Positions 12,163-61,892 of a DNA stretch of 64,000 nt are shown one piece after another. The stretch's first letter is position 1; each line of letters begins with the position of its first letter. Location: the IMG/VR virus record IMGVR_UViG_3300033802_000475. One strand, written 5' to 3'. Under the pieces are notes generated by a model. It saw only the letters and a program-made list of their open reading frames with translations. It made no database searches and was not told the DNA's origin. The position numbers and the translations under genes are program-made. This stretch comes from a virus.

Positions 12163-12313
12163 CACCCGTGAGACGGCGGCGCAGCTTGCGGCACGTCTAA
12201 GGCGGCATATCGATGGCAACGATTATGTTCTTGTGATTGAGGTTCGGAACAACTCAGATGGCTGGTTGCCGAAGGAGGCGTGGGACTGGATCAAGCAGTT
12301 CGTGCCGGCATGA
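12041..12313 (+). CDS. Stand-alone Cas2/VapD-like ferredoxin-fold protein
   Basis: YCVSYDL...Y..LYEELKK...WWHYLDSTWLI...LRRHIDGNDYVLVIEV; Cas2-like xxYD N-terminal strand. Confidence 0.65.
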   Translation: MAAYCVSYDLKVPGKNYGPLYEELKKSPNWWHYLDSTWLISTRETAAQLAARLRRHIDGNDYVLVIEVRNNSDGWLPKEAWDWIKQFVPA

Positions 12314-12473
12314 CGGGCAACACCGAGTTATGCTGGTCGCGAGCGCAGTGAAGGAGACGTTGGCGAGGGGAGATCCCGTAGGAGGCCGGCGCGGGGTACG
12401 TCACGGAATAATAGCCGCGGCGGCCACCCACCACATGTGATTCGGCGCCCCGATCGAACTCGACCCGTCGATC

Positions 12474-12794
12474 ATGGGGGAGTACGCAGGCAAGCTCTAT
12501 CGGGCGGCGAACCGGATCGTGGTCGCCTCAACGCTGGCCGCGGGGAGTTTCGGACTCCTGATCGGCAGCATGTTCGTTAAAGTGCTTGGCGCAGGCATCC
12601 TTCATTGGGCAGTTGCGTTGACAGTGTTGTTCGGCTGGGTGGGCTGGGAGATCGGGCAGAGGTGGGCTTTTCATCTCCGGCTCCAGGCTCAACAGGCGCT
12701 CTGCCAGGTGCAGATCGAAGCGAATACCAGACGAGGGCGAACGGGCGAGACGGCAGACGAGCCGGCCGGCTACGAGCCTCGGTGGATACGCTGA
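12474..12794 (+). CDS. Two-TM membrane protein
   Basis: Two hydrophobic helices (IVVASTLAAGSFGLLIGSMFV; ILHWAVALTVLFGWVGW). Confidence 0.65.
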   Translation: MGEYAGKLYRAANRIVVASTLAAGSFGLLIGSMFVKVLGAGILHWAVALTVLFGWVGWEIGQRWAFHLRLQAQQALCQVQIEANTRRGRTGETADEPAGYEPRWIR

Positions 12795-13096
12795 GAACGC
12801 CGGAACGGTTTACGGCCGCGGAACTTGGTCGGGCCGAGATCCCGTGGAAGGAGATTCGTTGGGAAGTCCAACAGGCAATCTTGGACGCCTGGGGGGCCGG
12901 ACTGACAGCCTGTACGCGTTGATGATCGATTGCAATCTGCGCCTACGGCCCTGCCGGTCATGCGCGGTGTAACCCTCGCGTACAATCGAGCGGGGAGGGC
13001 CCCGGGCTCAACGGCAACGTCCTAGACCTACAAATCGGTACGACCGCCGTTCTGATTGGCAAAGAAAACAATTGGCGATGAAGATCTGGAGGTCGA

Positions 13097-13906
13097 ATGC
13101 CGGCGACTCATTACAAGATCTGGGGTTGGGGAGACTACTTAGAGCGCGGAGTGATGGGCTCCCGCCACGTTGGGGTCGCAGGAGTGGCGAAGAAGGCCAC
13201 AGAGGACCAACCTTTCGCAGTTGCAAACGAACTGATCTGTGGGTATCTCGCCAGGGTGCTCCTATTGCCGGTTCCGCCCGGCTTTGTTGTCGAGCGAGAG
13301 GGGGAGCCATATTACGTTTCCCTCAACTTCAACCTCGCGGGCCAGTCGCTGCCTCCGGCGAATCCCAGACGCCTCGTCGAGGATCATCCCCGGCTGGCCT
13401 GCGGAATTATCCTGTTCGACTGCTGGATTCTCAACCATGATCGCCACCCCGAGAATCTTGCGTACGACACCATATCTAGGCGTGTGCAGCTATTCGATCA
13501 CAGCCATGCGATTCTGCCAGCGGGTATGGGCGGTGAATGGCTGGACCACAATCGTGACAGGCTGGGGATTGGAGGCCATTGCCTCAAATCGGAGATCACA
13601 TCCCTCGATGGCATGAGGTATTGGTACGACCGGATCAATGCCGTGCCAGAGTATTATATTGAAGAGGTCGTACGGGCTGCAGCCGAAGTGGGGTTACCGA
13701 CGGAATTGGTCGGTTCTTGCACTGACTTCTTGCTGGAGCGGCGTCGAAACCTACTGACTCTCGTGGCCGCGCACAGGGGCGAGTTCCAGCAGCTGCAGCC
13801 AGAACTTTGGGAGATGCTCGAAGACGCAAGGGTGGAGGCGGACGCTCAGGACGAGGGCCAGCTAGCAGCAACTCTAGCGAATTCGTCCGGAGGTGACGAT
13901 GAGTAA
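13097..13906 (+). CDS. HipA-like (PI3K/PI4K superfamily) kinase
   Basis: VAKK, ANELICGYLA (alphaC Glu), FDCWILNHDRHPENL catalytic loop, LFDHSHA. Confidence 0.85.
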   Translation: MPATHYKIWGWGDYLERGVMGSRHVGVAGVAKKATEDQPFAVANELICGYLARVLLLPVPPGFVVEREGEPYYVSLNFNLAGQSLPPANPRRLVEDHPRLACGIILFDCWILNHDRHPENLAYDTISRRVQLFDHSHAILPAGMGGEWLDHNRDRLGIGGHCLKSEITSLDGMRYWYDRINAVPEYYIEEVVRAAAEVGLPTELVGSCTDFLLERRRNLLTLVAAHRGEFQQLQPELWEMLEDARVEADAQDEGQLAATLANSSGGDDE

Positions 13907-19836: not shown

Positions 19837-19952
19837 CAATCTGTTGCGCCACCGCCAGGCGCAGTGTGAGTCGCCACCGGCGCAGAGCCGCCGGGCGGCG
19901 CTCGCAGGAAGGCCGATAACAGTCTGGGATATGCGGCGTTACGCCGCCGGCC

Positions 19953-20247
19953 CCGGAAGCCGACTCTCGGCGAGTCAATGGGTTGCGGCAGCGACGTCAT
20001 GGGCGCACTCGAGGCGCTTGCCACCCCCGGAAGCCGACTCTCGGCGAGTGTGTGGCTGCGGCCCGCTGACCTCGCGATCGACGCTGCCGGAGGCTGACTC
20101 CCGGCGAGCAAACGGCTGCGGCTTCCACTTGATCTCCCCTTACGGGCGCACATGCTCGCTGCGAGCCGATTCTCGGCGAGACAGCGGTTGCGGCCGCCGA
20201 TCGATCTCACGATCCGGATGTCGTGACTCGGCGAGGGGGTTGGTCAC
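19953..20247 (+). CRISPR. Degenerate mini CRISPR-like array (4 full repeats plus 1 degenerate)
   Basis: Repeats at 19953-19989, 20027-20062, 20087-20122, 20159-20194 and ~20214 (degenerate); consensus CCGGAAGCCGACTCTCGGCGAG-N5/6-GG(T/C)TGCGGC; spacers 37, 24, 36 and 19 nt; strand inferred from the upstream gene. Confidence 0.75.
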
Positions 20248-48716: not shown

Positions 48717-50699
48717 CTACCTCGATCCGGTCGCCGAAAAGAGCACCCGTCCGCGCCGCCGACGCACCGGCGCCGGCGGCGCTTTGCCCGTTCGGAGCGC
48801 CTCGCCCTGCTTTCGGACCATCTCCGCAAGCTGGCCAAGGTTGTTTCGCACCGCGGGGCCGAGGACGTGCAGCATGGCGAGCACGCCCACCTCGAGGTCG
48901 ATCGCCTCGTTCGCCCCCTTCTTCTTCCACTCCACCACCCAGTCGCCGTTCGGCAGGCGCTTCCGGCGCGGCTCCTCGCGGCCGAACTGCGCGTAGAACT
49001 CGGCGTCGGCGCCGTTGTGCCACTCCGGATTCGCCGCGCGAAAGTGCATGTACCCGAACGGGACCGGCCGATCGGGATCCCACGTGAGGCGCAGCCGCGC
49101 GAAGAGCGTCGCCTTCATCGGGTGCGTGCCGATGTGGACAAGGCGGATCCCCTGCTTGTTCGGCTTCGCCGACTTCTTGATCGGCTCGCGTTGCCGGGAG
49201 GGCTGGCCCTTCGTCGCCCATACGCCTTCGGTCTGGCGGGGGCGGACGTAATCGTAGACCTCGTTCGTCCTCGATCCGTCGCCCGAGTCGACGCCGAGCA
49301 CGTGGATGCGCATCTTGGCGCCCGATTCGTGGACGTAGACTCGTTTTCGGAGCGCGTCAAGCTGCTGCCAGACCTGGGGTAGGGAGGTGTCGCCGTAGAG
49401 GCGGTGGTGGGCCACCATCCAGGACTCCTCGCGGTCTCCCCACCCACGGATCAGGACCTCGATGCGGTCGTGCTGCACGTCCGCAAAGGCCGTAAGAAGC
49501 CCCACCCCCATCGGCACCTCGACCAGGTGCCCCTCGGGGTCCCGATACTCCTCGACCCGGGCAGCAAGGCTGTTCGGATCGACCTCCTGGCCGGTCTTCT
49601 CCTCCCAGGGTTCGGCGAGTACGGTGTTGTAGAAGACCTGGAGCAGGAGCGGGTCATCCTTCGAGCGCAGGAACTCGGCGACGAGCCTCGCCCAGCTCGC
49701 GCCCGGGAAGAGCGAGATGAGCGCGTTGAAGTGGTAGCCGCGGATCGCAGCGCCCGGATTCTCGGCGATCCAACGGCCCTCCAGCACCATGCGCGTCTTG
49801 TGGCGCTCCTCGATGACGCAGGCGTTCTTCTCGCAGAGGTAGTAGACCGTCTCGGGGCGGTGGACAAACTCGCCGGGATGGACCTCCTCCTTCTCCCACT
49901 TGATGCCGTACGGTTCGTCCGGCCCGCCCCAACGTAACACCTGCTCGTGGCCGCAGTGCGGACACTTCACGTAGTAGCGCCGCTTGTCCGACATCTCGTA
50001 GAGGCGGGACGTCGGACCGCCCTTCTTGATCGGCGTCGAGATGGTGCAGATGAAGGCGTTCGGGAAGGTGAGCGTGCGCTTTTCCGCGAGCGCGGCGGGG
50101 TCGCCCTCTTCGCCGGCCGAGGTCGCATACGCGTCGCGCTCGTCGAAGAAGAGCCGCGGCGCCGACCGGCTCCGGAGGCCGCGGGGCGACTCGGCGCCGA
50201 TGATGCCGATCCAGCCTCCGGCGAACTTCTTGTAGCGGATCGTGTTGTCGCTCGACTTCGACGTCTGGGGAGCGATCTTGCCCTGGATCCGCTTTGTGTC
50301 CTCGAGGACCGGCTGGAGCTTCTCCTTGCTCCACTTCTCCGCCTCTTCCTGCGTCGGCTGCACGACGATCACCGGGGCTGGATCGACGTCGATCCAGTAG
50401 GTGATCGGCAGCCCGATGAGCCCGACCGTCGCACCGACCTGGGCCGGCTTCATGACGACCATCTCCCGGACCGTCGGGTCCGAGATCGCGTCCATCGGCT
50501 CGCGGAGGTAAGGGACACGCGAGAGGCGGAAACGCCCCGGCTCCGCGGAGGTGTTCGGAACGACGCCGTAGCGGTCGGCCCACTCGCTCAGCGTGAGCCT
50601 CGGAGAGGGACGGAACGTCTCCTCAAAGACCTTCCGCATCCTGGATCGCCAGGCGGCGAGGGCGTCCGGGTGGGTGGTCCTACGCCTCTTCATCGGCAT
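48717..50699 (-). CDS. Terminase large subunit (GpA family)
   Basis: MKPAQVGAT (Walker A), FFDERDAY, ISTP, YYVKCPHCG, FADVQHDR, VDSG, NEAIDLEV. Confidence 0.97.
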   Translation of the reverse strand: MPMKRRRTTHPDALAAWRSRMRKVFEETFRPSPRLTLSEWADRYGVVPNTSAEPGRFRLSRVPYLREPMDAISDPTVREMVVMKPAQVGATVGLIGLPITYWIDVDPAPVIVVQPTQEEAEKWSKEKLQPVLEDTKRIQGKIAPQTSKSSDNTIRYKKFAGGWIGIIGAESPRGLRSRSAPRLFFDERDAYATSAGEEGDPAALAEKRTLTFPNAFICTISTPIKKGGPTSRLYEMSDKRRYYVKCPHCGHEQVLRWGGPDEPYGIKWEKEEVHPGEFVHRPETVYYLCEKNACVIEERHKTRMVLEGRWIAENPGAAIRGYHFNALISLFPGASWARLVAEFLRSKDDPLLLQVFYNTVLAEPWEEKTGQEVDPNSLAARVEEYRDPEGHLVEVPMGVGLLTAFADVQHDRIEVLIRGWGDREESWMVAHHRLYGDTSLPQVWQQLDALRKRVYVHESGAKMRIHVLGVDSGDGSRTNEVYDYVRPRQTEGVWATKGQPSRQREPIKKSAKPNKQGIRLVHIGTHPMKATLFARLRLTWDPDRPVPFGYMHFRAANPEWHNGADAEFYAQFGREEPRRKRLPNGDWVVEWKKKGANEAIDLEVGVLAMLHVLGPAVRNNLGQLAEMVRKQGEALRTGKAPPAPVRRRRGRVLFSATGSR

Positions 50700-51198
50700 C
50701 GTCGTCGCTTGCGCCTTCGCCCTCGATCTCCTGTCCCGCCTCGCGCAGCGCCTCGATCACCTCCTCGATGGCGGGGTCGAGGCGAGCGATTACCTCCTGC
50801 GGCGTCTCGCAGCCGACCAGGACCGAGGACCATCGGTGCTTGAAGGACTTGAGGAGAGCGGCGGCGGTCTCGAGCGGCTCTCGGACCAGCTTCTCGACGT
50901 CGTCGATATGGATCACCTCGCCCCGGAGCTGGGCGAGGCGGATTTCCTTCATTTCCGCGTCGGCGATGGCCGCGCGGAGCTCCGCCTCCTGGATCGACTC
51001 CTCGACCGACGTGCGCTTGCCCTTCGCCTCCTCGACCTTGTACTGGATGTAGCGATGGTTACTTTCGGGCCACGGGTAAACCTTTTTCCCGTGGGCATCT
51101 ATCTCGGCTCGCAGAATGCCGTCCCGCTCCAGATTCCGGATCTGGCGGGTGGTGAGCCCAAGCAGGCGCGAGAGGTCCGACTGGTTGACGCGTTGCAC
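50680..51198 (-). CDS. Terminase small subunit (Nu1-like)
   Basis: VNQSDLSRLLGLTTRQIRNL winged HTH, coiled coil, LRGEVI. Confidence 0.9.
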   Translation of the reverse strand: MQRVNQSDLSRLLGLTTRQIRNLERDGILRAEIDAHGKKVYPWPESNHRYIQYKVEEAKGKRTSVEESIQEAELRAAIADAEMKEIRLAQLRGEVIHIDDVEKLVREPLETAAALLKSFKHRWSSVLVGCETPQEVIARLDPAIEEVIEALREAGQEIEGEGASDDDADEEA

Positions 51199-51199
51199 G

Positions 51200-51400
51200 G
51201 CGCACGGTCAGTCACGCCGGAAACGGAAGCCATCCCGGCGAGGGCCTGTGACTAGCGAAATGTCGCGGGCGGGCGCGATCCTCGCCCCGGGGGGGGCCGG
51301 GAGGACCCGCGGGGAGGGGGCGGCCGCCCCGCCGGCGCCCGGGGCGCCGTAGGCCGCGACCGCGCAAGTCGTTGCGCTCCAATGTTTTCCGTCCGTGCTC
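51200..51400. other. Candidate cos/packaging region
   Basis: Non-coding GC-rich stretch directly upstream of terS; minus strand CGCGGGTCCTCCC...TTTCGCTAG; positional analogy with lambda cos only. Confidence 0.35.
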
Positions 51401-51827
51401 ATGTCATTGCCCTCGCCTTCTCGCCCGCCGAGAGCGAGCGCGCGACCTCGAGGAGGAAGGCGACCTCATCCGGGGTGAGGTCGGGCACCTGCTGAAGAGC
51501 GAGGCGAAGGTCCGCCTCGCCGCGCCCCCGCTTGCGGATCTTCGCAACGACCCGGGCGCTCGGCCGGATGCCTACGCTCACGCGGACCACGATCAGGTAC
51601 CAATGGCTGCAGCGCCGGCACTTGCGCTCGAAGGCGACCACGCCGATCGCGGCGACGGCGATCACCTCGCGCCAGTGATACTGGCCGCATGGGCAGGCAA
51701 TCTGCTGCTCGATCGCCGCGGAACTGTACACCACGTCTCCCTCGCCTAGATGGATAACAGCCCGAGCCCCGTCCTCGTGGACGGTGCGCGGGCTGCGCCC
51801 AGTCGTGTAATGTCCTCCAAGCTTCAA
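51399..51827 (-). CDS. Zn-ribbon hypothetical protein
   Basis: CPCG and CRRC motifs. Confidence 0.55.
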   Translation of the reverse strand: MKLGGHYTTGRSPRTVHEDGARAVIHLGEGDVVYSSAAIEQQIACPCGQYHWREVIAVAAIGVVAFERKCRRCSHWYLIVVRVSVGIRPSARVVAKIRKRGRGEADLRLALQQVPDLTPDEVAFLLEVARSLSAGEKARAMT

Positions 51828-51858
51828 GGTGCGTCCTCAGTCGTTGATGGTCAAGCGT

Positions 51859-52191
51859 TTACCGCGTTGGCGGCGTTGATGCGTCTCTCAGCTGTGCGCG
51901 GCGCCGACGCTCTCGCTCTCGGGTTCCGCCACGCCCCGCACCCGACCGGATCACCGTCGCCACTGCGGGGAAAGGGCCGTCGCCGGGCACGATCAGCGCC
52001 CGGAACGCGTACGGGCGGCGAACGCGAACGTAGTAGCCCTTGCCGCTGTGCGCCGGGCGGGGCTCGCTCGTGGTCTCCTCTAGTCCACGGATGATCGCGC
52101 CGAGCGCCTGGCCGTAGCTCAGGTGCGGGGCAATGCGCTCGCGAAATCGCTCGACGGCGTGGGGCGTGACGAAGTAGCGACCGGCGATCAC
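51859..52191 (-). CDS. Hypothetical protein (TxHAxERF motif, DUF4258-like)
   Basis: FVTPHAVERFRER. Confidence 0.5.
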   Translation of the reverse strand: MIAGRYFVTPHAVERFRERIAPHLSYGQALGAIIRGLEETTSEPRPAHSGKGYYVRVRRPYAFRALIVPGDGPFPAVATVIRSGAGRGGTRERERRRRAQLRDASTPPTR

Positions 52192-52198
52192 GCGGGCC

Positions 52199-52546
52199 TC
52201 AATCTCTTACCCAGTACCATCCGCCGCGTCCCCGATACCAGCGTGCGAACCCACACCGCTCGTGTAGCCGCTGGGACGCCGTGTTGCCGTCGTGCACGTA
52301 CGCGAAGAGCGGGACGTGCAGGTCTCGATACGCCTGCTCGGCGAGCCGGCGGCCGCGGTACTCGGGAAGCACATAGATCGGGCCGACCCTCATCCGGCCG
52401 CGGCCGGCGGGATGCGGGCAGTAGAATCCGACGGGGCGCTCGCGCCCGTCCTCCTCCCGTGCGACGATCGGTACGGCCTTCAGCGTCGGCGGCCGGATCC
52501 GCCAGCCTTCCGCCGCCGCCCGCTGGATGATCTCCTCGAGGGTCAT
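52199..52546 (-). CDS. GNAT family acetyltransferase
   Basis: IYVLPEYRGRRLA (motif A), NTASQRLHERCGF (motif B). Confidence 0.85.
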   Translation of the reverse strand: MTLEEIIQRAAAEGWRIRPPTLKAVPIVAREEDGRERPVGFYCPHPAGRGRMRVGPIYVLPEYRGRRLAEQAYRDLHVPLFAYVHDGNTASQRLHERCGFARWYRGRGGWYWVRD

Positions 52547-53193
52547 CGATCCTCTCCCGGAACAGGTCCAAATACACGGCGATACGTCTCGGACTGACGG
52601 ATCCCCCGGTGGCCCGGTAGCGTGGAGGGCACGGCCCGATGCTGCACGAGCGAGGGCACGTGCACGAGCATCTTCGCCCGCCGGCGCGAAAGCCACGCGC
52701 CCAGGAGCAGATCCGCGGCATGCCGGTGCTCCGGGTGCGCCTCGTACCAAGCCGGCGCCCATTCACCGAATCCGCGCATCACCGAGGCCCTGAGCAGCAC
52801 CGCTTGCATCATGCAGAACGAGCTCGGCGGCTGCGACCGCCACCGCTCGCCCCGCTCGAGCATGGCCATGTCCTGGCTGGACCTGGAGAAGAGCGAGACC
52901 GCGCCGACCTCGGGGGCGACCGCCATCCGCTGCAGGGGAATCGCGGCCTGAACGCCGAAGTTCGGAGCGAGCCAGACATCGTCCTCGAGGGCCAGAATGA
53001 GCGGCCGATCGATCTCGAGAGCGAGCTCAATCAGGGTGGGGAAATCAGATCGAGGATCACCGCCCGGCGAGTGGCGCCAGATCACGATCTCAGCTCCTCT
53101 GCATTCCCGTACGGTCCTCCGCACGAGCTCGTCGAGCAAGGCACTGCGCTCGGGCATCGTCGGAATCGCGACGACGACGTCGCGCCAGGTCAC
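52543..53193 (-). CDS. GT-A fold glycosyltransferase-like protein
   Basis: VVVAIPTMPER, LILALEDDV (DxD-type), HVPSLVQH. Confidence 0.75.
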   Translation of the reverse strand: MTWRDVVVAIPTMPERSALLDELVRRTVRECRGAEIVIWRHSPGGDPRSDFPTLIELALEIDRPLILALEDDVWLAPNFGVQAAIPLQRMAVAPEVGAVSLFSRSSQDMAMLERGERWRSQPPSSFCMMQAVLLRASVMRGFGEWAPAWYEAHPEHRHAADLLLGAWLSRRRAKMLVHVPSLVQHRAVPSTLPGHRGIRQSETYRRVFGPVPGEDR

Positions 53194-54251
53194 AGCCTGT
53201 CCCACCAGAGTTCTCTCAGCCGTTCGGGGGAGCGACGTCGCACCGGGACGTTGTTCTCCCAGTCGTTGATCAAGAGCTGGCGCACGTGCTCCCTGCACGT
53301 CGCCTCGTCGTCGCCCTGGCGCTCCAAGCGCTTTCGGATCCGCTCCATCTGCTCGAGCGGGGTAGAGGCGACCAGGTAGTCCCGGTATTCCCTCCAGGAG
53401 GCGAATCGCGAGGGCAGGCGCCGCGCGTTGAAGATCTCCTCCTCCGCGTAGAGCGCGGCGAAGTGCGTCCCGCCGAGCCGGCGGAGCAGCCGCTCGTACG
53501 TCTCCGGCTCGATCTCCTGCAGCGTCGCGAGCGCGCGGTACGACTGCTCGTGCAGGAGGAACGAGACGCGCATCGTCCGCTCGTTCACGCCGCGAAGCCG
53601 ATAGAGCCGATCATAGACGCGATTGTAGGGCAGGCCATAATCGGCGATGTACTTCCAGACGTCGCCAAATGCCCAGTCGAAGAGCGGATAGAACCGGTAG
53701 TTCCCCTCTCCGGGCGCGGCAGTGCTCCAACCGATCCCGCGATATCCCGGGTTCGCCTTCGCCGCCCGCCACCGGTTCAGACTCTCGCGTGAACGGAGCC
53801 CGACGAGGAATGCGGTCGGCTCCGGTGAGGAGGCCTCGAACCAGGGGAAGAAGTCGTAGAACCGGTCGGGTGCGCCCGGGGCGGCGTGGATCGCGATCTC
53901 CGACTTCGGCCGCATCCACTCCTCGCCCTCGCCCCACGCATGCAGCCAGATGTCGCGGTGGCTCGTCGCGTTCGTCATCCGAAGCGGAACCTGGAACCAA
54001 CGCGGGGTGACTGCGGGATGCCGCATCTCCCGCTCGATCACCTCGATCGTGCCTGCGTACTCCGCTTCCTGGTCCAGGAAGAAGACCTCCACCTTCCGGC
54101 CACGCCGCTCGGCCTCGGTCACGGCGAGGTGCCACAGCACCTGCGAATCCTTCCCGCCCGAGACGGAGATGACGACTCGGCCGAAGTGGTCGAAGACGTA
54201 CGCAACCCGCCGGCGCGCCGCGTCGAGCACGGACTCGGTTGTGGTCACCAT
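53190..54251 (-). CDS. IbrA/YbdN-like PAPS reductase family protein (DUF3440)
   Basis: ISVSGGKDS PP-loop, FFLDQEAEY, LVGLRSRESLNRW, YPLFDW..GDVW, LINDW. Confidence 0.9.
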   Translation of the reverse strand: MVTTTESVLDAARRRVAYVFDHFGRVVISVSGGKDSQVLWHLAVTEAERRGRKVEVFFLDQEAEYAGTIEVIEREMRHPAVTPRWFQVPLRMTNATSHRDIWLHAWGEGEEWMRPKSEIAIHAAPGAPDRFYDFFPWFEASSPEPTAFLVGLRSRESLNRWRAAKANPGYRGIGWSTAAPGEGNYRFYPLFDWAFGDVWKYIADYGLPYNRVYDRLYRLRGVNERTMRVSFLLHEQSYRALATLQEIEPETYERLLRRLGGTHFAALYAEEEIFNARRLPSRFASWREYRDYLVASTPLEQMERIRKRLERQGDDEATCREHVRQLLINDWENNVPVRRRSPERLRELWWDRL

Positions 54252-55033
54252 CCGGCAGCCTCCGCCTTGTCCGCGATCGCGTTCGTGAGGGTCACGTATT
54301 CGAGGAGCCGCCCGACCAGGTAGCGGTCCACGGGCAGGTCCGTCGCGACGATCCGGGGCACGGCTGCGCCGCGCCGGAAAAGCCGGGCGGGAGTCGGTAC
54401 GGCCCGGCGGGGTTCTGCCTGCTGAGCGAATGCGGCGAGCCGGCGGATGATCCCGGCGACAGTCTTCTCGTTCGCGAAGGCCTCCTCCTTCACCGCGGCG
54501 TAATCGGCGTGCACCCGGGACGGCGCCTCGATCGTCTCGACTTCGATCTCGGGGAACCGGAACGGCTCGTCGCCGGCCACGACCCCATCCATCGCGCGCA
54601 GGACCGCCTCGACGCCGAACGGGTCGGACGTGCGGAGCTCGTGCGCGTTCTTCCAGCGCGTCTCGGCGAGGAACGAGTCCGTGAAACCCCAGCGCTCGGC
54701 GCCGACGGCGTAGAAGTGCCACCACATCCGCCACGGCTCGGAGACGAAGAGGACCTCGTCGACGGAGATGCGGTGGAGATGCGGCCGCGGCCGGAGCAGG
54801 ACCTGGCCGAGCTTCACCCGGTTCGACGGTGTCATGAGCCGGGAGAGGCCGACGACGACCATTGTCCCGGGCGCGCCGAGCCATTCCTCCCGCCGCTCGA
54901 GGAGCGTCGCGAGCTCGACGACCGGGAGCCCGACCGGCGTGGGGTATCCGGGCGCGACGACCGCGAACGCCCGGTCCGGGTCGCTGAGGAGCGCCGCGTC
55001 AAACGGCCGGGTCGTCAGGTAGATCCTCGCCAT
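54245..55033 (-). CDS. Hypothetical protein (possibly a degenerate SNF2-like domain)
   Basis: 262 aa between IbrB- and IbrA-like genes; no intact Walker A; fold guess is weak. Confidence 0.5.
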   Translation of the reverse strand: MARIYLTTRPFDAALLSDPDRAFAVVAPGYPTPVGLPVVELATLLERREEWLGAPGTMVVVGLSRLMTPSNRVKLGQVLLRPRPHLHRISVDEVLFVSEPWRMWWHFYAVGAERWGFTDSFLAETRWKNAHELRTSDPFGVEAVLRAMDGVVAGDEPFRFPEIEVETIEAPSRVHADYAAVKEEAFANEKTVAGIIRRLAAFAQQAEPRRAVPTPARLFRRGAAVPRIVATDLPVDRYLVGRLLEYVTLTNAIADKAEAAGW

Positions 55034-55679
55034 CCCGTCCCGTCCATGCGCGGGTGTATTCCGGCGCCGCGAGAAGCCGTGCGACGCCGACGACCTGCTT
55101 CAGCCGGAGCAGCTCCTCGACGCTCATGCCGAGGTGCTTTGCGATCCGCTCGTCGCTCCACCCCTCGTGGAGGAGGGCGCGAACGAGCGCGCCCATGAGC
55201 TCGACCTGGTGCTTCCCCCGGGCTCGGTTGTGCCGGACCGTCGCCGCCATCCGATCGGCGAGCGGCCGATCGATCACCGACGACGGCACGTAGCGCCGGC
55301 CGAGACGTTCGGTGATCACCTTCCGGCGGTGGAACCCGTCGACGACCTCCCACTCGGCGGCCGCCGGATCCTCGACGGTGACCACGGGCATCGTGACCCC
55401 GTCCTCGCGGATCGAGACCTCGAGGAGGTCCAGCTCCGGCGCCGCGACAACGTTCGGGTTGTACGTGTTCGCCCGGACGCGTTCGGCGGGCAGAAGCTGG
55501 ATCGCGAGAACAGGGTCGTCACAGACGTCCGAGACCAGCGCGCGGATCTCCCGCGTCAGGCGGTTGTAGACGGCGACTCGGACATCCGCCGGCGCCGCGC
55601 TTAACCGCCGGATCGCGCGGACGGCATCGTCGATCCGCTCCTCCGTGGTCCGAATCATGTCGGTCGCGGTATTCATCAT
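54999..55679 (-). CDS. IbrB/YbdM-like ParB/Srx-domain protein
   Basis: RANTYNPNVV, EVVDGFHR, RMAATVRHNRARGKH. Confidence 0.9.
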   Translation of the reverse strand: MMNTATDMIRTTEERIDDAVRAIRRLSAAPADVRVAVYNRLTREIRALVSDVCDDPVLAIQLLPAERVRANTYNPNVVAAPELDLLEVSIREDGVTMPVVTVEDPAAAEWEVVDGFHRRKVITERLGRRYVPSSVIDRPLADRMAATVRHNRARGKHQVELMGALVRALLHEGWSDERIAKHLGMSVEELLRLKQVVGVARLLAAPEYTRAWTGRDGEDLPDDPAV

Positions 55680-55689
55680 CTCCCTCGGG

Positions 55690-56526
55690 TCAGGCGTACG
55701 ACTGCGCGACCGGAAACCACTCGCGCAGCCGCCGGTACAGGGTGGGCCAGTAGCGGCGGAGCCAGGCCGCGCCGCCGTGCCTCGTCGCCCCGCCCGGGAT
55801 CCACCAGCTCTTGCGGACCCGCCATGGCTCGCGCTCGTGCATGAAGCCGACGCAGCGGTAGACCGGCAGCAGCTCGAGCCCGTGCGCGACCGCGTAGGCG
55901 TAGACGTCGATACCCTCCCAGTCGCCGAGCGGCGTGCAGACGAGCTGCCCGCGCTCGCGGCCGCGGGCGGCCTGACGGCGGTAGAGGAGGCCGTTGAAGC
56001 AACGATTCCGCGCGCGGCCGCGCGATTCCTCGGCGCGCAGCCCGAGGAAGATCGCCTCCCGGTCCTCGGTCGCCTCCTCGACGACGCCATAGAAGGCCGC
56101 CTTGCTGAGCCCCGCCGCGCGCGAGTGGAGATCGCCGGCGACGTCGAGCTCGTGCGCGTGGTCGCGGATCCAGTCCGCGGGCGAGATCGGGGGGCGGACG
56201 ATCTCGAGCTCGGCGCCCCATTCCTTCGCGAGCCCCTCGACGTACGCCTCCTCGCCCGGGTAGTCGAGATCGTCCTTCTCGCTCACGAGCGGGACACCGG
56301 CGCCTGTCTCCACGGTGATCAGGTGCGCCATCGCCGTCGAATCCTTCCCGCCGCTCCACATGACCGCGGCGTCGCCGCCGGCCTCCTCGAGACAGCGCAC
56401 GACGAGCCGGCGCGCCTGGTCGACGCGGCGCCGATGGGCCAGCGTCGTCGCGTGGCGCGCCGCCACGACCATCCATCGCGCCCAGACCGCGCGGTCGTGC
56501 GCGTCCAGCACCGGCTCAGCCGACAC
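55690..56526 (-). CDS. CysH-like PAPS reductase family protein of type IV-B CRISPR-Cas
   Basis: MWSGGKDS PP-loop, FLGLRAEESRGR, CTPLGDW..IDVYAY; directly after csf3. Confidence 0.88.
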   Translation of the reverse strand: MSAEPVLDAHDRAVWARWMVVAARHATTLAHRRRVDQARRLVVRCLEEAGGDAAVMWSGGKDSTAMAHLITVETGAGVPLVSEKDDLDYPGEEAYVEGLAKEWGAELEIVRPPISPADWIRDHAHELDVAGDLHSRAAGLSKAAFYGVVEEATEDREAIFLGLRAEESRGRARNRCFNGLLYRRQAARGRERGQLVCTPLGDWEGIDVYAYAVAHGLELLPVYRCVGFMHEREPWRVRKSWWIPGGATRHGGAAWLRRYWPTLYRRLREWFPVAQSYA

Positions 56527-57304
56527 AGGAGACCTCCTCGACGGCGTCGACCCGCTCGCCGAGTCGCTGGACCGGCACGCGGCACAGCATGCGGGTCCGC
56601 GGGTGCCAGTACGGCGCGCGGACGGTGGCCTCCCGGACGTCGTGGCGGGTCGTGCGCTGCGCGAGCTCGAAGTGCGCCGGCAGCGGCCGCATGAGGCGCC
56701 AACCCGGGCCGAACCAGTGCCACGGCTCGCCGGGCGCGACCTCCCACCCGTGCACGTGGCCGAGGCCTCCGGAGCGCTTCCCGCCGATCGTCTGCACTTC
56801 GCGGAGGAGGTCTTCGAGGCGCGCGCGATCGCCGATGACCCACCAATCGACCCAGTGCGCGACGACCACGGGGGCGGGGAGGTTCGAGGCCTTCGTCTCG
56901 CCGACCGAGGGATTGATGACCGTCGCCCCGAGTTTATCCGCCCGGACGCGGCGGCGGCGCCACCGGACGGACGCTGCCGCGTCGACGGACGGCCAGCCCG
57001 CCGAAGCGAACGCGATCGGGAACGGGCAGCCGGGCACCTCGCCATCCGCTATCGGGATCGGGACGTCCGTGTCCTCGATCGGCGCCGAGATCGGACAGCC
57101 GGCGAAGACGTCGTCGGGCACGCGCCCGGTCTCGCGCACGATGACGACGTACTGCAGCGCGCCCTCGATCATGAGCGGGTCATAGAGGTCCCACGCGACC
57201 GGCGCGGCGAGCCACGCGCGGATCCGGAGGGGCTCCGGGGAAACCGGAGCCCACCGTTCCCGGGCCCGCTCGCGCCAGGCCCGATTCTCCGCCGCCCAGC
57301 TCAA
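56516..57304 (-). CDS. csf3: Type IV Cas5-family subunit Csf3
   Basis: RAMP start PLRIRAWLAAP, G-rich loop IGGKRSGGLGHV, LMRPLP, RAPYWHP. Confidence 0.85.
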   Translation of the reverse strand: MSWAAENRAWRERARERWAPVSPEPLRIRAWLAAPVAWDLYDPLMIEGALQYVVIVRETGRVPDDVFAGCPISAPIEDTDVPIPIADGEVPGCPFPIAFASAGWPSVDAAASVRWRRRRVRADKLGATVINPSVGETKASNLPAPVVVAHWVDWWVIGDRARLEDLLREVQTIGGKRSGGLGHVHGWEVAPGEPWHWFGPGWRLMRPLPAHFELAQRTTRHDVREATVRAPYWHPRTRMLCRVPVQRLGERVDAVEEVSCVG

Positions 57305-58728
57305 GCCGTCACCTCCGCGGGCGCGCGGCGCTTCTTCGGCCGCTCCGTCGCCGTGGTGGAGATCCCCGGGTCCGCGGGTGCGAGCGCCATCGCCCACTCG
57401 ATCATCTCGTCGCGCCGGCGCTCGACGTCCTCGAGGTAGAGGTCGGGCGGCGGGAGCTCGGCCGCCCCCGGTCCGGGCGTGTAGCCGTCCAGCGCGATCC
57501 CGCCCATGCCGCGGGCCGCGTCGGCGCCGATGTACCCGGTCGCGCGGAACTGCTCGAGCAGGTCGGCGAGGCACGAGGCGGTGACCGGGTTGATCCCGTC
57601 GAGGCCGATGATCTGGAGCGTGTGGACCATCTGGTAGCCGGCGATGAGGACCTCCTTGTTCGCGATCATCTGGATCCCGTCGCTCTCCGGGATGTCGCGG
57701 TGCGCGTGACGGGTGAGGAGGCGGAGCTGCGTCATCTCCGCCGCCACGGGGAGCTGGGCGGCGAACTCCTCGAGAGGCATGTGTGGCGCGACGACCGGGT
57801 GCACCAGCCAGGCGTTCTCCCGGCAGACGAGGACGGCATCGCAGACCCGGGCGCGGCCGCCCATGATCTGCTTGTCGATGCACCCGGCGAAGAGGTCCCA
57901 CGGGGGGCAGGCGCGGCGCGCTGCATCACGCACCAGGTTGTTGACCTTCGCGCCGTCGGCGCCGGCATCGACGTTGCCGCCGGCGAGGAGCGCGTGCGCC
58001 CGGTGCGTGGGCAGGGCGCGCGTCGAGAGGCCGAGGAGCGAGAACCAGCGGCCCATCACCAGGTCGCGCCAGAAGCCCCGGATCGCGTTGCCCGAGACGA
58101 ACGGCACGTAGGCCGCCCGACCCGTCAGGGGGTCGTGCACGCGCTGGCGGCGAAAGAGGCTGACGTTGCCGTGCTTCTCGTCGGCGCCGTGGTGCATCGG
58201 CCCGGTCAGCGTCCAGACCGACGTGTAGGCGCGGGGCGCGATCAGCTCGCGCGGCAGCTGCGGGATGTAGCCCCCCGACTGAACCGGATCGGGGAAGTAA
58301 TCGAAGTGCAGGTCCTCGCCCTCGATCCCGTAGCGATCGGTCGCGAAGGTCGAGAGGAACTCCGGACTCTCGTGCACGACGACGCGGAGGTCGTCGTAGT
58401 CCATCGCGGCCAGCGCGCGGTCCCAACGGATCCGGCCCTCCGGGAGCCAGGCCTCGATCGGGCCCCACTCCGAATCGCCGCCAGCGGGGTCGACGTCGAA
58501 GCGCCGGCAGAAGGCGCGGTAGAAGCCGAGCGGGCTTCGCTCGGAGACGACGAACGGGACCAGGCTCGTCGTGATCTCGTTCGGGAGCTCCTGGTAGCGA
58601 CGCTCGCCGATCTTGTCGCGGTCGATGCGGATCACGGTCGCGCGCAGCAGGTAGGCGAGCAGCCTGCGCGTGGCCTTGATGCCGCTCGGAATGTCCTGTC
58701 GGCTCAGTTCCTTCTCGGGGCGCCTCAT
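57301..58728 (-). CDS. csf2: Type IV Cas7-family Csf2 with N-terminal helical (Cas11-like) fusion
   Basis: WTLTGPMHHGADEKHGN, VPFVSGNAIRG..RD, LLAGG, PPWDLFAG, G-rich loop YIGADAARGMG; about 135-160 extra N-terminal residues. Confidence 0.88.
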   Translation of the reverse strand: MRRPEKELSRQDIPSGIKATRRLLAYLLRATVIRIDRDKIGERRYQELPNEITTSLVPFVVSERSPLGFYRAFCRRFDVDPAGGDSEWGPIEAWLPEGRIRWDRALAAMDYDDLRVVVHESPEFLSTFATDRYGIEGEDLHFDYFPDPVQSGGYIPQLPRELIAPRAYTSVWTLTGPMHHGADEKHGNVSLFRRQRVHDPLTGRAAYVPFVSGNAIRGFWRDLVMGRWFSLLGLSTRALPTHRAHALLAGGNVDAGADGAKVNNLVRDAARRACPPWDLFAGCIDKQIMGGRARVCDAVLVCRENAWLVHPVVAPHMPLEEFAAQLPVAAEMTQLRLLTRHAHRDIPESDGIQMIANKEVLIAGYQMVHTLQIIGLDGINPVTASCLADLLEQFRATGYIGADAARGMGGIALDGYTPGPGAAELPPPDLYLEDVERRRDEMIEWAMALAPADPGISTTATERPKKRRAPAEVTA

Positions 58729-59549
58729 CACGCTTCTCCTGTGTTCAGGGTGGGGATCAATCGACAGAAGACCGGCCACCACGTCGTCTCCGCGTGGGGG
58801 CGGAGCGGCGCGGTGAGCGTCGGCCAGAGCCGCGCGGCGGTGAGGCCCGAGCGCGGCGGGAGTACGAGATCTCGAAGTGCCTGCTTCGCGCGCCACGCCG
58901 GGACACCGCCCTCGACGAGAACCCGCATCAGGTGGGTCGCGGCATCCCGGGCGCGGAGCCAGACGTCGCGGTCGAGGACGAAATCCAGGTGGTCGTCGAC
59001 CTGCACCGGGTAGCGGTCGCGCGAGTATGCGGTCCGGCTGTAGAGCGCGACGTGTTTCGATTGCAGCCGGATCAGGGCCGCCGGGTGCATCGGCTCCCCC
59101 GGCCACCACGTCCGCTTCCAGTTCGGCACGCCGTGCGCCTCCTGGACGGACTCGCCGCCGTGGTCGATCCCGTAGAGCGGGATCCCGACCACGAACGGGG
59201 GTGCCGGTGGATTCAGGAGCTCGGCGAGGGGGTCGGTGCCGGGAGCCCGGATCGACCAGAAGCGCACGCCCTCGGCGCTCGCGAACCAGGAGACACAACG
59301 CAGCCGGAGCGTCTTCGCGCAGAAAACGCACGCGGCGCAGTAGCGCGTCCCCCCGAACGCGTGGATCCGGTTCGCGTTGCGCGTCGGAATGAAGTTCGAG
59401 CTGACGAGCTGGTCGACGTCGTACGCGCCCCCCTCACCCCCGCAGCGGGCGCAGTGCGAGGCCTCGCCCCGCGCCTGCGGGATCGGCTCGCCGTAGACGT
59501 CGCAGGGGACGGGGCTACCCGCCGCCCGCCATATCAATTGCGTCTCCAT
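58728..59549 (-). CDS. csf1: Type IV large subunit Csf1 (Cas8-like)
   Basis: CARCG...CAAC zinc finger, LLNPPAPPFVV, QSKHV, YPVQVDD; first gene of the csf operon. Confidence 0.8.
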   Translation of the reverse strand: METQLIWRAAGSPVPCDVYGEPIPQARGEASHCARCGGEGGAYDVDQLVSSNFIPTRNANRIHAFGGTRYCAACVFCAKTLRLRCVSWFASAEGVRFWSIRAPGTDPLAELLNPPAPPFVVGIPLYGIDHGGESVQEAHGVPNWKRTWWPGEPMHPAALIRLQSKHVALYSRTAYSRDRYPVQVDDHLDFVLDRDVWLRARDAATHLMRVLVEGGVPAWRAKQALRDLVLPPRSGLTAARLWPTLTAPLRPHAETTWWPVFCRLIPTLNTGEA

Positions 59550-59554
59550 TGAGG

Positions 59555-60088
59555 TCACGGCTCCTTCGTTGCTCCGCGCCCGTCCGCGATCGCCCGTGCA
59601 TGGACGGCCCGCACCAGGTGCGAGGTGAACTCCTTCCGCTCCCAGCCGCGGCCGCCCTTCCGCGGCCAGACGACGAAGAAGCGGTATGGGTGCATTTCCG
59701 CGGCGATCCTGACCTTGAGCCGCGCGTCTTCCCGGGCGTAGAAGCCCGCTCCTTTCCGGCCCTTGACCTCGTGGAACTCGACGGTCCCGTCCGGCATCAC
59801 CACGCGGAAGTCGGGCGAGTAGAACGCGGCGGTTGCGAGGCGAAGCTTCTCGGGCTCGAAGTCCCAACGCAGGATCGTCCCCGCCCGCTGCAGGGTGTCG
59901 AGGTGCGCGGCGTAGCGGGCCTCGGTCTGGTTCATCCGCGGCCCGGAGGTGCGGGCGGCCGGCTCCGGCTCCGTGGCGGTCTCCTGGAGGACGCCCTCGA
60001 TCCGCCTCCGGAGCACGGCGCCGACGTCCGGCCGCTGGAGCAGCTGCCGGAGCTCCGCCGGCGAGAGCGAGCGTAGATCGACGCTCAT
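59555..60088 (-). CDS. DUF1064-like PD-(D/E)xK endonuclease
   Basis: MNQTEARYA...YSPDFRV...FHEVKG. Confidence 0.8.
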   Translation of the reverse strand: MSVDLRSLSPAELRQLLQRPDVGAVLRRRIEGVLQETATEPEPAARTSGPRMNQTEARYAAHLDTLQRAGTILRWDFEPEKLRLATAAFYSPDFRVVMPDGTVEFHEVKGRKGAGFYAREDARLKVRIAAEMHPYRFFVVWPRKGGRGWERKEFTSHLVRAVHARAIADGRGATKEP

Positions 60089-60267
60089 GCCCGGGCGCCT
60101 CCGCTATTCCGCGCGGAAACCATGAGCTCGCAGAACTCGCAGCGCTGGTCCTCGAGGCCGGTGAGTTCGATGCCGCACATGGAGCACCGATCGCGGCCCA
60201 CGGCGCACCGGCAGGCGCCAGGTCGGCAGTGCCCGAGGCAGCGCTCGCCGCGGTGATCACGCGCCAT
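60085..60267 (-). CDS. Small Cys-rich protein
   Basis: 60 aa with 8 Cys. Confidence 0.5.
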   Translation of the reverse strand: MARDHRGERCLGHCRPGACRCAVGRDRCSMCGIELTGLEDQRCEFCELMVSARNSGGARA

Positions 60268-60676
60268 GGTTCTCGCTCCGCGCGTTGGGGTGGGCGGCGG
60301 TGTGCTCGGCCATGAGGGCCTGCGCCTCTTCGGGCGTGGCGACCTCAAACCACGGATGCGCCGTCCCGTCTTCTGTGACCACTTCGAGGCGATGGAGCTG
60401 GAGCAATCCACCGAGCGTCCAGTTGCACCCCTTCCCCTGATTCTCCGGGCGGGGCGAGCCGGCACCTGTCCAGCGTCCGACGCACGAGAATCCGACATAC
60501 CGCTCCACCTCCTCAGCGGTACGTCCCGCGCCGGCTCGGATCAGCGAGGTCATGGATTGAATCGTTCCGCACATCGGGCATCGGAAGGCCACGTGTTCCC
60601 GGGGTACCCCCTGCGCCCGGATCGCCTCTCGGTACTCCTCGATGGTCATCGTCTGCCGCTCCGTCGTCGTCCGCAT
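60257..60676 (-). CDS. VVA0879-like phage protein
   Basis: AFRCPMCG, FSCVGRW, GCNWTLGGL. Confidence 0.8.
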   Translation of the reverse strand: MRTTTERQTMTIEEYREAIRAQGVPREHVAFRCPMCGTIQSMTSLIRAGAGRTAEEVERYVGFSCVGRWTGAGSPRPENQGKGCNWTLGGLLQLHRLEVVTEDGTAHPWFEVATPEEAQALMAEHTAAHPNARSENHGA

Positions 60677-61614
60677 CACACCCCTCCCTCGCCCCAGCGG
60701 CGGACGAATCGCGCCTCGATGTCCCGCAGCCTCCTCTGGGCGATCGCCAACTCGGTTGCCACATCCGCGCCGTCGCGGCCCTCCAATGCGGCCAGGCACA
60801 GCGCCAGATCGGAGATGACGCCGCGTAGCTCGAGGGCGAGCGGGTCACGCTGCGCATCCATCCCCTGGGCCTTGGAGCGACCGTCGGCGCCGTGCTCGGC
60901 CCCACTGAAATTCCGGTCGGATATTTTTCCGGGTGCCGCGGATTTTTCTGGCCCTTCGACAGCGACAATCCCATCGCCGTCCGGCAGCTCGACTCCGAGG
61001 AACGGCGCCATGCGTTCGGCGGCCTGCGCCAGCAGCGGCCCCCACTCGCCGGCGGCGAATAGGCCGGACGCGAACCGGACTGCCTCGATCATTTCGCGGG
61101 TGAACGCCTCCCGTGAGGCTCCGGCCCGGCATGCAGCGACCTCAGCACGCACCGCCTCCAGCTCGCGGGCGAGATAGTCGAGCTGATCGGCCGCCGTCCG
61201 TAGCAAGCCCTCGATCTCGGGATACGAAGATTGCCCGGTCCTACCGACCTCCAGCCGGATCAAATGGGCCACGCTCGGCGGGTCAAGTTCCCATTGACGC
61301 TCACTCCTGTCGCCGGGGTCGGCCCCGACGGCGCGGCGCAAATCCTCGATCGCGCTACGGTGCACGCGCTGGAACCCGCCCGACGGCGGATATGCCGTCT
61401 CCACGACTCGCCGGGCCGCCGTGGTGATGGCCCGTGCTCTCTCCCGCGCCTCCTCCAGCTCGCGGGTGAGGCGGGCGATGTATTCGTTCGCATACGGGTC
61501 CATTGACCGCGGCGGCCCGAGCGGGATACTGAGAGGCGGCAGCGACGGGCAGTTATGCTGCCGTTGTGTGCTCAGGTCGTGCTGGCCGCAATGCGGGCAG
61601 GTATACATGCTCAT
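60676..61614 (-). CDS. Hypothetical mosaic phage protein
   Basis: 312-aa ORF; N-terminal CPHC, coiled coils. Confidence 0.6.
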   Translation of the reverse strand: MSMYTCPHCGQHDLSTQRQHNCPSLPPLSIPLGPPRSMDPYANEYIARLTRELEEARERARAITTAARRVVETAYPPSGGFQRVHRSAIEDLRRAVGADPGDRSERQWELDPPSVAHLIRLEVGRTGQSSYPEIEGLLRTAADQLDYLARELEAVRAEVAACRAGASREAFTREMIEAVRFASGLFAAGEWGPLLAQAAERMAPFLGVELPDGDGIVAVEGPEKSAAPGKISDRNFSGAEHGADGRSKAQGMDAQRDPLALELRGVISDLALCLAALEGRDGADVATELAIAQRRLRDIEARFVRRWGEGGV

Positions 61615-61892
61615 GAATCACCATCCTCTCGCCGAATTTCGATTCTCGCCGGGTCCATCCGGTTCAGCCGCCGGATGATGCGGTCGAGGTGCGACCGTAG
61701 GCTTATCCGGCTCTCGATCCGATACGGCTCGCCGCCGATGCGGATGCCGTTTACCGTCATCGGCCCCGTGTCATACCAGCCGCCGTGTAGCGCCGACGCG
61801 TCCTCGATCACGTCCGGATCTTCGCCGCCGTAAGCGAGGCCATCGATCCAGATTGTGTAGACCCTATCAGCCATCGTCGTCGCTCCGCTCAT
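61611..61892 (-). CDS. Small hypothetical protein
   Basis: 93 aa; overlaps both neighbours by 4 nt. Confidence 0.55.
   Translation of the reverse strand: MSGATTMADRVYTIWIDGLAYGGEDPDVIEDASALHGGWYDTGPMTVNGIRIGGEPYRIESRISLRSHLDRIIRRLNRMDPARIEIRREDGDS

Follow-up and report, generated by a model that had tools for sequence, protein, structure and literature searches.

Coupling of type IV-B CRISPR-Cas genes with an IbrA/IbrB-type cassette in an uncultured tailed phage and in other phages and plasmids

We have examined a 64,000-nucleotide window of IMG/VR record IMGVR_UViG_3300033802_000475, an uncultured tailed phage (70,721 bp, estimated to be 95% complete, ~70% G+C), in which a single run of ten minus-strand genes at 51859–59549, packed tightly or overlapping, brings together a subtype IV-B CRISPR-Cas gene set and a cassette built around the gene pair ibrA and ibrB. 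Comparison with related loci gives good support to the genetic coupling of IV-B genes with an IbrA/IbrB (IbrAB)-type cassette across phages and plasmids of both Bacteria and Archaea, and the two parts have been joined or separated several times. The function of subtype IV-B was still called unclear in a September 2026 paper (PMC13676074), and the cysH-like gene has until now been the sole clue to it; the partners reported in surveys are cysH and, occasionally, an ADP-ribosyltransferase or an N6-methyltransferase (PMC7038947, PMC8175902, bioRxiv 270033), and within the incomplete coverage of our literature search we found no paper linking IV-B to IbrAB. The recurrence of the pairing in phages that are not related to one another, and in plasmids of Bacteria as well as Archaea, offers a testable lead to type IV-B function, including in cultured carriers such as Halomontanus rarus, Natrinema thermotolerans, Actinarchaeum halophilum and Rhodovastum atsumiense, and, if true, would provide the first functional context for the widespread and uncharacterised IbrAB pairs of phages and plasmids.

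Linkage of type IV-B genes to IbrA/IbrB-type cassettes

Searching with an alignment of Csf2 yielded 10 related loci from IMG/VR and 27 from metagenomes (loci are numbered here with the prefix L), and no relative among species-representative genomes. A tblastn search of phage genomes with Csf2 gave no match, and a DNA-level search of phage genomes with the whole region returned only a 4% ParB match, in Microbacterium phage Rasputia. The window proteins were mapped onto the loci, with genes re-called by a per-locus codon model, and the scorable set comprises 15 non-redundant loci that have enough downstream flank and encode, like the window, a Csf2 with an extra N-terminal domain (termed fused Csf2 here and discussed below); the counts carry no formal statistic. 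IbrA and IbrB are both encoded within ~6 kb of csf3 in nine of the 15 (L002, L003, L005, L006, L011, L023, L027, L028/29 and L030), and in L022, additional to these, the contig ends inside the cassette; the pair is missing from the remaining six (L004, L007, L008, L009, L010 and L017). Because genes outside the island are almost never common to these loci, the linkage is not plain sister-phage synteny.

The cassette is found in two gene orders. In one, ibrB is followed by a gene for a protein with a Snf2-like fold and then by ibrA, with or without genes for a glycosyltransferase (GT) and a GNAT acyltransferase; in the other, a methyltransferase gene, with or without GNAT, is followed by an unknown gene of 300 amino acids (aa), ibrA and ibrB. 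We note that in cassettes with the ibrA-ibrB order a family of ~290–310 aa (f2) always lies directly before IbrA, in the slot of the Snf2-like protein (L003, L005, L011, L022, L023 and L027; for example L027:4298–5230). The GT, GNAT and DNA methyltransferase partners differ from locus to locus. The original prediction had looked to csf2 neighbourhoods for conservation of IbrAB, GT and GNAT together; this holds for IbrA and IbrB, and largely for GNAT, but not for GT, which is occasional and which the island's nearest relative lacks.

A compact (~200 aa) beta-class DNA methyltransferase with the motifs SDPPW and VLDPCxGxGMT, absent from the window, recurs in IV-B/IbrAB islands (L003:14320–14916, L005:13419–13997, L027:3708–4322, L059:4946–5620 and L039:12670–13395), and in L006 it appears to be fused to IbrB (a 473-aa open reading frame, 12302–13723). 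A gene of the Mom family (PF25680, the phage Mu DNA-modification family) is present at L052:1224–2042, two genes upstream of a csf-IbrB-Snf2-like-IbrA-GNAT-cysH island.

In about 12 loci cysH lies distal to the cassette (L002, L003, L005, L006, L027 and L030, and further L042, L043, L047, L050, L051 and L052), so that there the IV-B operon encloses the cassette; the distal orthologue in the phage loci is 50–58% identical to that of the window, and in related loci generally the cysH orthologues are 50–81% identical and often placed at the far end of the cassette. Reciprocal sampling from the Snf2-like gene shows that four of six neighbourhoods hold csf genes and cysH (L047, L050, L051 and L052), with the cassette alone in the other two (L045 and L049).

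A tblastn search of PLSDB with Csf2 identified IV-B plasmids with a separate cas11, and eight Csf2-positive records were inspected. Four of these have a ParB-domain gene and an IbrA-like gene (the latter annotated as DUF3440 or PAPS-reductase family, the former found by tblastn in Natrinema) beside the csf genes, three of them being haloarchaeal (Actinarchaeum, Halomontanus and Natrinema) and one alphaproteobacterial (Rhodovastum). The order is csf1-cas11-csf2-csf3-cysH-x-methyltransferase-like-ParB-262 aa-IbrA in Actinarchaeum halophilum and ...csf3-x-x-AbrB-IbrA-ParB-GNAT-cysH in Halomontanus rarus; the Natrinema thermotolerans plasmid also has both genes beside csf, and in Rhodovastum atsumiense the cassette is on the opposite strand. 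A GNAT is annotated in two of the four (Halomontanus and Rhodovastum). Plasmids of Mycolicibacterium, Rhodococcus RHA1, Gordonia and Thermococcus, and the Skermania phage SPI1, have cysH only, without IbrAB. As a base rate, IbrA-like genes occur in 699 of 72,556 plasmids (~1%) and in 180 of 50,697 phages (~0.4%), and we note that the best plasmid match of the window IbrA, with 51% identity, is on the IV-B plasmid of Actinarchaeum halophilum, the next match having 39%.

Evidence that the two parts have been re-joined comes from the IbrA tree, in which the IV-B-linked proteins fall into three or more clades with strong support, among which unlinked IbrAs of Escherichia albertii, Ralstonia, Fusobacterium and a Flavobacterium phage are interspersed, and in which hosts with fused Csf2 and with a separate Cas11 are mixed; a minimum of four changes (gains or losses) of IV-B linkage is required by the branches with strong support. 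Individual loci illustrate this. For example, L011 is 76% identical to the window in Csf2 and 73% in CysH, but only 42% in IbrA, and its gene order is reversed. The nearest relative of the island, L059 (contig DASVBR010000210.1 of NCBI GCA_036375745.1, binned as Longimicrobiales), is 80–89% identical in the csf genes, cysH, IbrB and the terminal gene dn1 (Csf2 89%, IbrB 86%, dn1 81%), but 49–64% in the Snf2-like protein, IbrA and GNAT (Snf2-like protein 49%, IbrA 58%); a methyltransferase gene is inserted after cysH, and GT is absent. This mosaic suggests recombination breakpoints inside the operon. That the cassette is exchanged while its association with the csf genes is kept provides the strongest argument for functional coupling.

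The island and its proteins

The genes of the island are listed in Table 1. Frame switches in a plot of GC content at third codon positions coincide exactly with the proposed gene boundaries, and every gene has a start codon and a purine-rich ribosome-binding site, overlapping or abutting the preceding stop codon. All nine genes of the original prediction are borne out by this evidence as real minus-strand genes in the positions first given to them, although the end point then chosen was one gene short, since dn1 continues the island. It seems probable, as a component of the overall explanation given below, that 51859–59549 is a single co-transcribed and translationally coupled island of ten genes. 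No promoter-like site was found on the minus strand, and terminator-like sites are no commoner than in shuffled sequence, the single one on the minus strand falling within csf1. The upstream neighbour of csf1 is a RusA-like resolvase gene; downstream of dn1 are two small genes followed by the small terminase, large terminase and portal genes, so that the terminase does lie on one side of the island, as had been proposed.

Table 1. Genes of the island, in order of transcription
Gene or product	Position	Strand	Remarks
csf1	58728–59549	-	273 aa; type IV large subunit; Cys-rich zinc-ribbon-like N-terminus
csf2 (Cas7) with N-terminal extension	57301–58728	-	475 aa; extra N-terminal domain of 170 aa
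csf3 (Cas5)	56516–57304	-	262 aa
cysH-like PP-loop ATP pyrophosphatase (CasCysH)	55690–56526	-	278 aa
ibrB (ParB/Srx domain)	54999–55679	-	226 aa; DGFHRR motif
Snf2-like-fold protein	54245–55033	-	262 aa; between ibrB and ibrA, overlapping both
ibrA (PAPS_reduct + DUF3440)	53190–54251	-	353 aa; PP-loop enzyme
GT-A glycosyltransferase	52543–53205	-	220 aa; start 53205 or 53193
mini-GNAT acyltransferase	52199–52546	-	115 aa; from PF00583, frame plot and homologue lengths
dn1	51859–52191	-	110 aa; final island gene, seven bases past GNAT

Csf1, Csf2 and Csf3, which subtype IV-B systems encode together, are all recognisable from PADLOC models, and Csf2 also from PDB 7JHY. Csf1 matches PADLOC Csf1_0_IV (4.4e-15) and TIGR03114 (1.8e-8), and Csf3 matches Csf3_0_IV (1.1e-27) and TIGR03116 (2.8e-13), in agreement with the initial calls of both genes; homologues of csf1, with 32–85% identity, immediately precede csf2 in the majority of related loci. 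Csf2 matches the PADLOC typeIV_Cas7 model (2.5e-34) across residues 171–416 and the Csf2 of PDB 7JHY (9e-8), so that of the earlier description of this gene as Cas11-csf2 the Csf2 part stands while the Cas11 part is unproven. The 142 homologues of the 475-aa Csf2 are all long, mostly 430–530 aa, and in this clade csf1 and csf2 are never separated by another gene, whereas lineages with a Csf2 of ~290 aa have a gene of 120–156 aa in that position; the economical reading would be a fusion, the N-terminal domain, a putative Cas11, lying in the cas11 slot. Comparison of the Csf2 N-terminus with Cas11 sets using hhalign gives a probability of at most 2%, and the same comparison also fails to relate the Cas11 sets of different IV-B lineages to one another; at E ≤1 Pfam has no match for the Csf2 N-terminus, dn1, family f2 or a further family, f4.

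As is usual for IV-B loci, there is no adjacent array, Cas6, adaptation gene or helicase. Array-like repeats were found neither within 50500–61800 nor by a k-mer scan of the genome, and PF10040 (Cas6) and Cas1 have no match across the 70.7-kb record. Elsewhere in the window, at 19940–20240, five degenerate direct repeats of 27–49 nucleotides, 67–89% alike and spaced by 55–74 nucleotides, lie beside a TnpB-like gene; these are 32 kb from the csf genes, with no link to the IV-B genes found, and differ from the repeat at L017. In that locus a genuine CRISPR array (L017:16049–16608, contig SXGT01483763.1), with eight near-identical repeats of ~33–35 nucleotides at a spacing of 70–75 nucleotides, lies ~4 kb beyond the downstream end of a locus with the order cas6-like-csf1-csf2(fused)-csf3-cysH, whose Csf2 belongs to the same clade as that of the window, and therefore some members of this IV-B-like clade are array-associated. 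We also note a family of 234–699 aa with a marginal Cas6 match (PF10040, E ~1e-5) in 17 loci (L001, L003–L007, L009, L010, L017–L024 and L029; for example L009:7772–8947 and L005:12252–13007), whose genes either immediately precede csf1 or immediately follow csf3. Such Cas6-like genes alongside fused Csf2 contrast with published accounts, in which Cas6 is rare in IV-B.

CasCysH matches PF01507 (2.3e-11) and has an SGGKDS PP-loop that is invariant (≥90% conserved) in 32 homologues, among which no cysteine is conserved, none occurring in more than 53%. The island thus has the cysH-like gene characteristic of IV-B, whose product keeps the PP-loop but lacks the cysteine that is catalytic in true CysH, and the data agree with the cysteine-less CasCysH reported in PMC8175902. 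IbrA matches PF01507 (1.8e-16), PF11922 (DUF3440, 9.3e-9) and phrog_2302 (2.1e-85); its SGGKDS motif is likewise invariant (≥90% conserved) in 19 homologues and the single cysteine of the window IbrA is not conserved, so the absence of a conserved cysteine extends from CasCysH to IbrA. IbrB matches phrog_2159 (7.8e-58), with a ParB_N match (1.1e-4) that is under the Pfam cut-off, and its homologues in related islands are 38–86% identical. The earlier assignments of a cysH-like protein, an IbrB-like ParB/Srx protein and an IbrA-like DUF3440 protein are all upheld by these profiles; the IbrAB module, PAPS_reduct plus DUF3440 beside ParB/Srx, is present, with one gene separating the pair.

The pair of a PAPS-reductase-like enzyme and a ParB-like protein had invited an analogy with DNA phosphorothioation by Dnd and Ssp systems, and this analogy is weakened. 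Neither PP-loop enzyme has the conserved cysteines or Fe-S cluster of a DndC/SspD-type enzyme; no cysteine desulfurase (PF00266) is matched in the phage record, although a host enzyme could still supply one; and none of the ten island proteins matches a PADLOC model for DndD, DndE, SspB or SspC, with only weak matches to DndC (1.8e-5, far below family level), BrxP and SspD. We therefore rejected Dnd-like phosphorothioation as a candidate activity, and Dnd/Ssp-type chemistry appears unlikely for this island; the IV-B/IbrAB link itself points away from phosphorothioation. Adenylation of a substrate followed by transfer would be the more natural reading of these PP-loop enzymes.

The 262-aa protein encoded between ibrB and ibrA has 33 metagenomic homologues of ~255 aa. 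Its AlphaFold2 model (predicted local distance difference test, pLDDT, 96.8; predicted template-modelling score, pTM, 0.92) gives VIA-align Z scores of 10–11.7 to CSB, SWR1, Chd1 and the poxvirus NPH-I, and 8.3 to ZorD, whereas neither a GK[ST] (Walker A) nor a DExx motif occurs in the sequence or among the conserved columns. The RecA-like fold of a Snf2/SF2 ATPase is thus matched while its motifs are missing, and as modelled the protein is Snf2-like in shape and not an active member of the family. The ESM Atlas gave a poor model and no usable match for it.

The glycosyltransferase has no Pfam match, but its AlphaFold2 model (pLDDT 89.2) has 135 Foldseek matches in the PDB at E ≤1e-3, and nearly all of the best 50 of these are GT-A enzymes, with stray non-GT entries lower; matches include Mimivirus R655/R699, POMGnT1, GnT-I and SpsA. 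Residues D75, D76 and H189 are invariant in seven homologues, and ED-D is present in most. The Rossmann-like fold of the model and D75-D76, corresponding to the DxD metal and nucleotide-sugar motif, bear out the initial GT-A call. The acetyltransferase likewise keeps its identity, with a PF00583 match (7.6e-8) at profile positions 35–116 that covers the GNAT core, but not the length of 187 aa first assigned to its open reading frame: the frame plot, together with an ATG that abuts the stop codon of GT, indicates position 52546 as the start, and 13 homologues are 113–122 aa, so that the true gene encodes 115 aa, below the typical GNAT size. Homologues are present in 12 related loci.

The final gene, dn1, has a homologue on the Rhodovastum plasmid (54% identity) between csf3 and cysH, and occupies the same position as here in L059. 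Its N-terminal motif is found in frame within a C-terminal extension of the called Csf3 gene of L047; in L003 and L023 it is in the C-terminal portion of long open reading frames of the Cas6-like family. From these sequence relationships dn1 looks like a Csf-associated component, and if so the enzymes of the window would be bracketed by Cas-linked genes. A structure search of the Atlas gave only a weak RelE-like lead for dn1. A complex of Csf3 with dn1, a pair chosen since the dn1 motif shares an open reading frame with Csf3 or the Cas6-like protein in relatives, was predicted with a score of 0.00, which is no answer, neither for nor against binding.

A possible role in nucleic acid modification

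The explanation that we favor, and which as a whole we judge to be rather likely, is that IV-B and IbrAB form a coupled island that modifies nucleic acid, with DNA as the likeliest substrate. The IV-B part consists of Csf1, Csf2 with its extra domain, Csf3 and the cysteine-less CasCysH, without array or Cas6, and the IbrAB part of IbrB, the Snf2-like protein lacking ATPase motifs and the cysteine-less IbrA, together with exchangeable decorating enzymes; in the window these are the GT-A enzyme and the mini-GNAT, and relatives have a beta-class DNA methyltransferase, either in their place or in addition to them. The island would be expressed between the recombination and replication genes and the packaging genes. 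The Csf ribonucleoprotein would supply nucleic acid binding or targeting, and may scaffold or direct the enzymes; the two PP-loop enzymes would activate a substrate via adenylation, not sulfur transfer, and GT, GNAT or methyltransferase would complete the covalent modification. The partners that point to DNA are the ParB/Srx domain, the Snf2-like fold and the methyltransferase with its intact SDPPW and S-adenosylmethionine-binding motifs. The purpose could be marking or protecting the DNA of the element, as the phage-DNA protection of the original prediction would have it, or conflict between mobile elements. An 'epigenetic' hypothesis for IV-B was raised in PMC7038947, and the recurrent, re-formed link to IbrA/IbrB, GNAT and DNA methyltransferases supports it.

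A more specific version of this explanation is suggested by Flavobacterium phage FPSV-F7, which has no type IV-B genes and encodes a SNF2-related protein (PF00176, 1e-10; L056:2200–3423) directly upstream of IbrB-IbrA, a gene order in keeping with the idea that a SNF2 protein is the normal partner of IbrAB; profile comparison of this protein with the 262-aa family of the island showed no similarity. We put forward tentatively, and with more doubt than confidence, that the Csf ribonucleoprotein could be the subunit that tracks nucleic acid in an IbrAB-type machine for DNA hypermodification, replacing the SNF2 translocase that accompanies IbrAB elsewhere, with CasCysH and IbrA as paired adenylating enzymes, such that IV-B would be a Cas-derived system for DNA modification and not for interference.

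Several observations weigh against a coupled modification island. IV-B genes occur without IbrAB on actinobacterial plasmids, in the Skermania phage SPI1 and on a Thermococcus plasmid, and hundreds of plasmids and phages have IbrAB but no IV-B genes. Nor do the loci count as phylogenetically independent, and co-occurrence is inflated because accessory genes of mobile elements gather in the same hot spots. In the window itself cysH directly follows csf3, so that the two parts are cleanly separable. Finally, in the sole published biochemistry, as summarised in PMC8175902, the purified IV-B complex binds heterogeneous small RNAs (PMC7937560), and an RNA target would fit this too.

One alternative is that a phage hot spot for accessory genes has brought together two modules that are independent and share only transcription, with IV-B working by itself, perhaps soaking up host CRISPR RNAs (crRNAs) as a sponge, and the IbrAB cassette having a function of its own. 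Each module is common by itself, the window order csf1-csf2-csf3-cysH followed by ibrB...GNAT keeps both intact, and six of the 15 scorable loci lack IbrAB. We nonetheless regard this as unlikely, since it does not readily account for the nesting of the cassette between csf3 and cysH in about 12 loci, for a pairing that recurs with three IbrA clades and in both gene orders, for its presence in phages, haloarchaeal plasmids and an alphaproteobacterial plasmid, or for the lack of flanking genes shared between loci; moreover dn1 is here found beyond the enzymes, at the end of the operon, although in other loci its place is between csf3 and cysH or in one open reading frame with Csf3 or the Cas6-like protein.

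It is appreciably less likely that RNA is modified and not DNA, the substrate being host tRNA, crRNA or small RNAs bound by a Csf filament, with PP-loop enzymes similar to TilS or TtcA and a GNAT like those that acetylate RNA or aminoacyl-tRNA. Many RNA-base modifiers are PP-loop enzymes without a catalytic cysteine, and RNA binding by the purified complex is in keeping with such a role, as is the proposal that CasCysH AMPylates nucleic acid bound by the IV-B complex (PMC8175902). However, the recurrent partners are oriented to DNA (the ParB/Srx domain, the Snf2-like fold, the beta-class N6/N4 DNA methyltransferase and the SNF2 protein of FPSV-F7), and no RNA-specific domain was found.

A regulatory device without chemistry, in which IbrA and IbrB are transcriptional co-activators and a nuclease-less Csf complex represses in a CRISPR interference-like manner, seems very improbable: the two proteins are said to be co-activators of prophage eib genes in Escherichia coli ECOR-9, and a homologue of IbrB in Ralstonia carries the annotation 'co-activator of prophage', but the conserved PP-loops of both enzymes and the DxD of the GT favor catalysis over pure regulation, and no array, Cas6 or source of guides was found beside the genes. 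Transcriptional repression is the mode of action of type IV-A systems (PMC13676074).

Comparison with known systems

The likeness of the island to Dpd and to phage hypermodification loci is thematic only. In Dpd a ParB-family protein, the ATPase DpdB, works on DNA with the base-modifying enzyme DpdA, and GT and GNAT-like Mom proteins are typical of phage hypermodification, but no tRNA-guanine transglycosylase, QueC/D/E, thymidylate-synthase-like protein or hydroxymethylase was seen in the island. With Dnd, Ssp and type 4 BREX systems (DndA-E, SspABCD and BrxP) it shares an enzyme of the PAPS-reductase fold together with a ParB-like protein, as in DndC and DndB; it differs in that the PP-loop enzymes have no conserved cysteine or Fe-S motif and the phage encodes no desulfurase.

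The similarities to subtype IV-B, for which the references are Mycobacterium sp. JS623 (PDB 7JHY) and Rhodococcus jostii RHA1 pRHL3, include recognisable Csf1, Csf2 and Csf3, a cysH-like PP-loop gene without the catalytic cysteine, carriage on a mobile element, and the lack of an adjacent array, Cas6, Cas1, nuclease or helicase. However, the window has a 170-aa N-terminal domain on Csf2 in place of a separate cas11, Cas6-like genes are found in many relatives with a Csf2 of the same clade, and a genuine array in one, and the operon continues into IbrB, the Snf2-like protein, IbrA, GT, GNAT and dn1, none of which are present in the actinobacterial references. The IbrA/IbrB pairs of Escherichia albertii and E. 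coli plasmids and of the Flavobacterium phages FCL-2 and FPSV-F7 have the same pair of domains and a conserved PP-loop, and are also mobile; but whereas their two genes are adjacent, the pair in the window is split by the Snf2-like protein, trailed by GT and GNAT, and joined to Cas genes.

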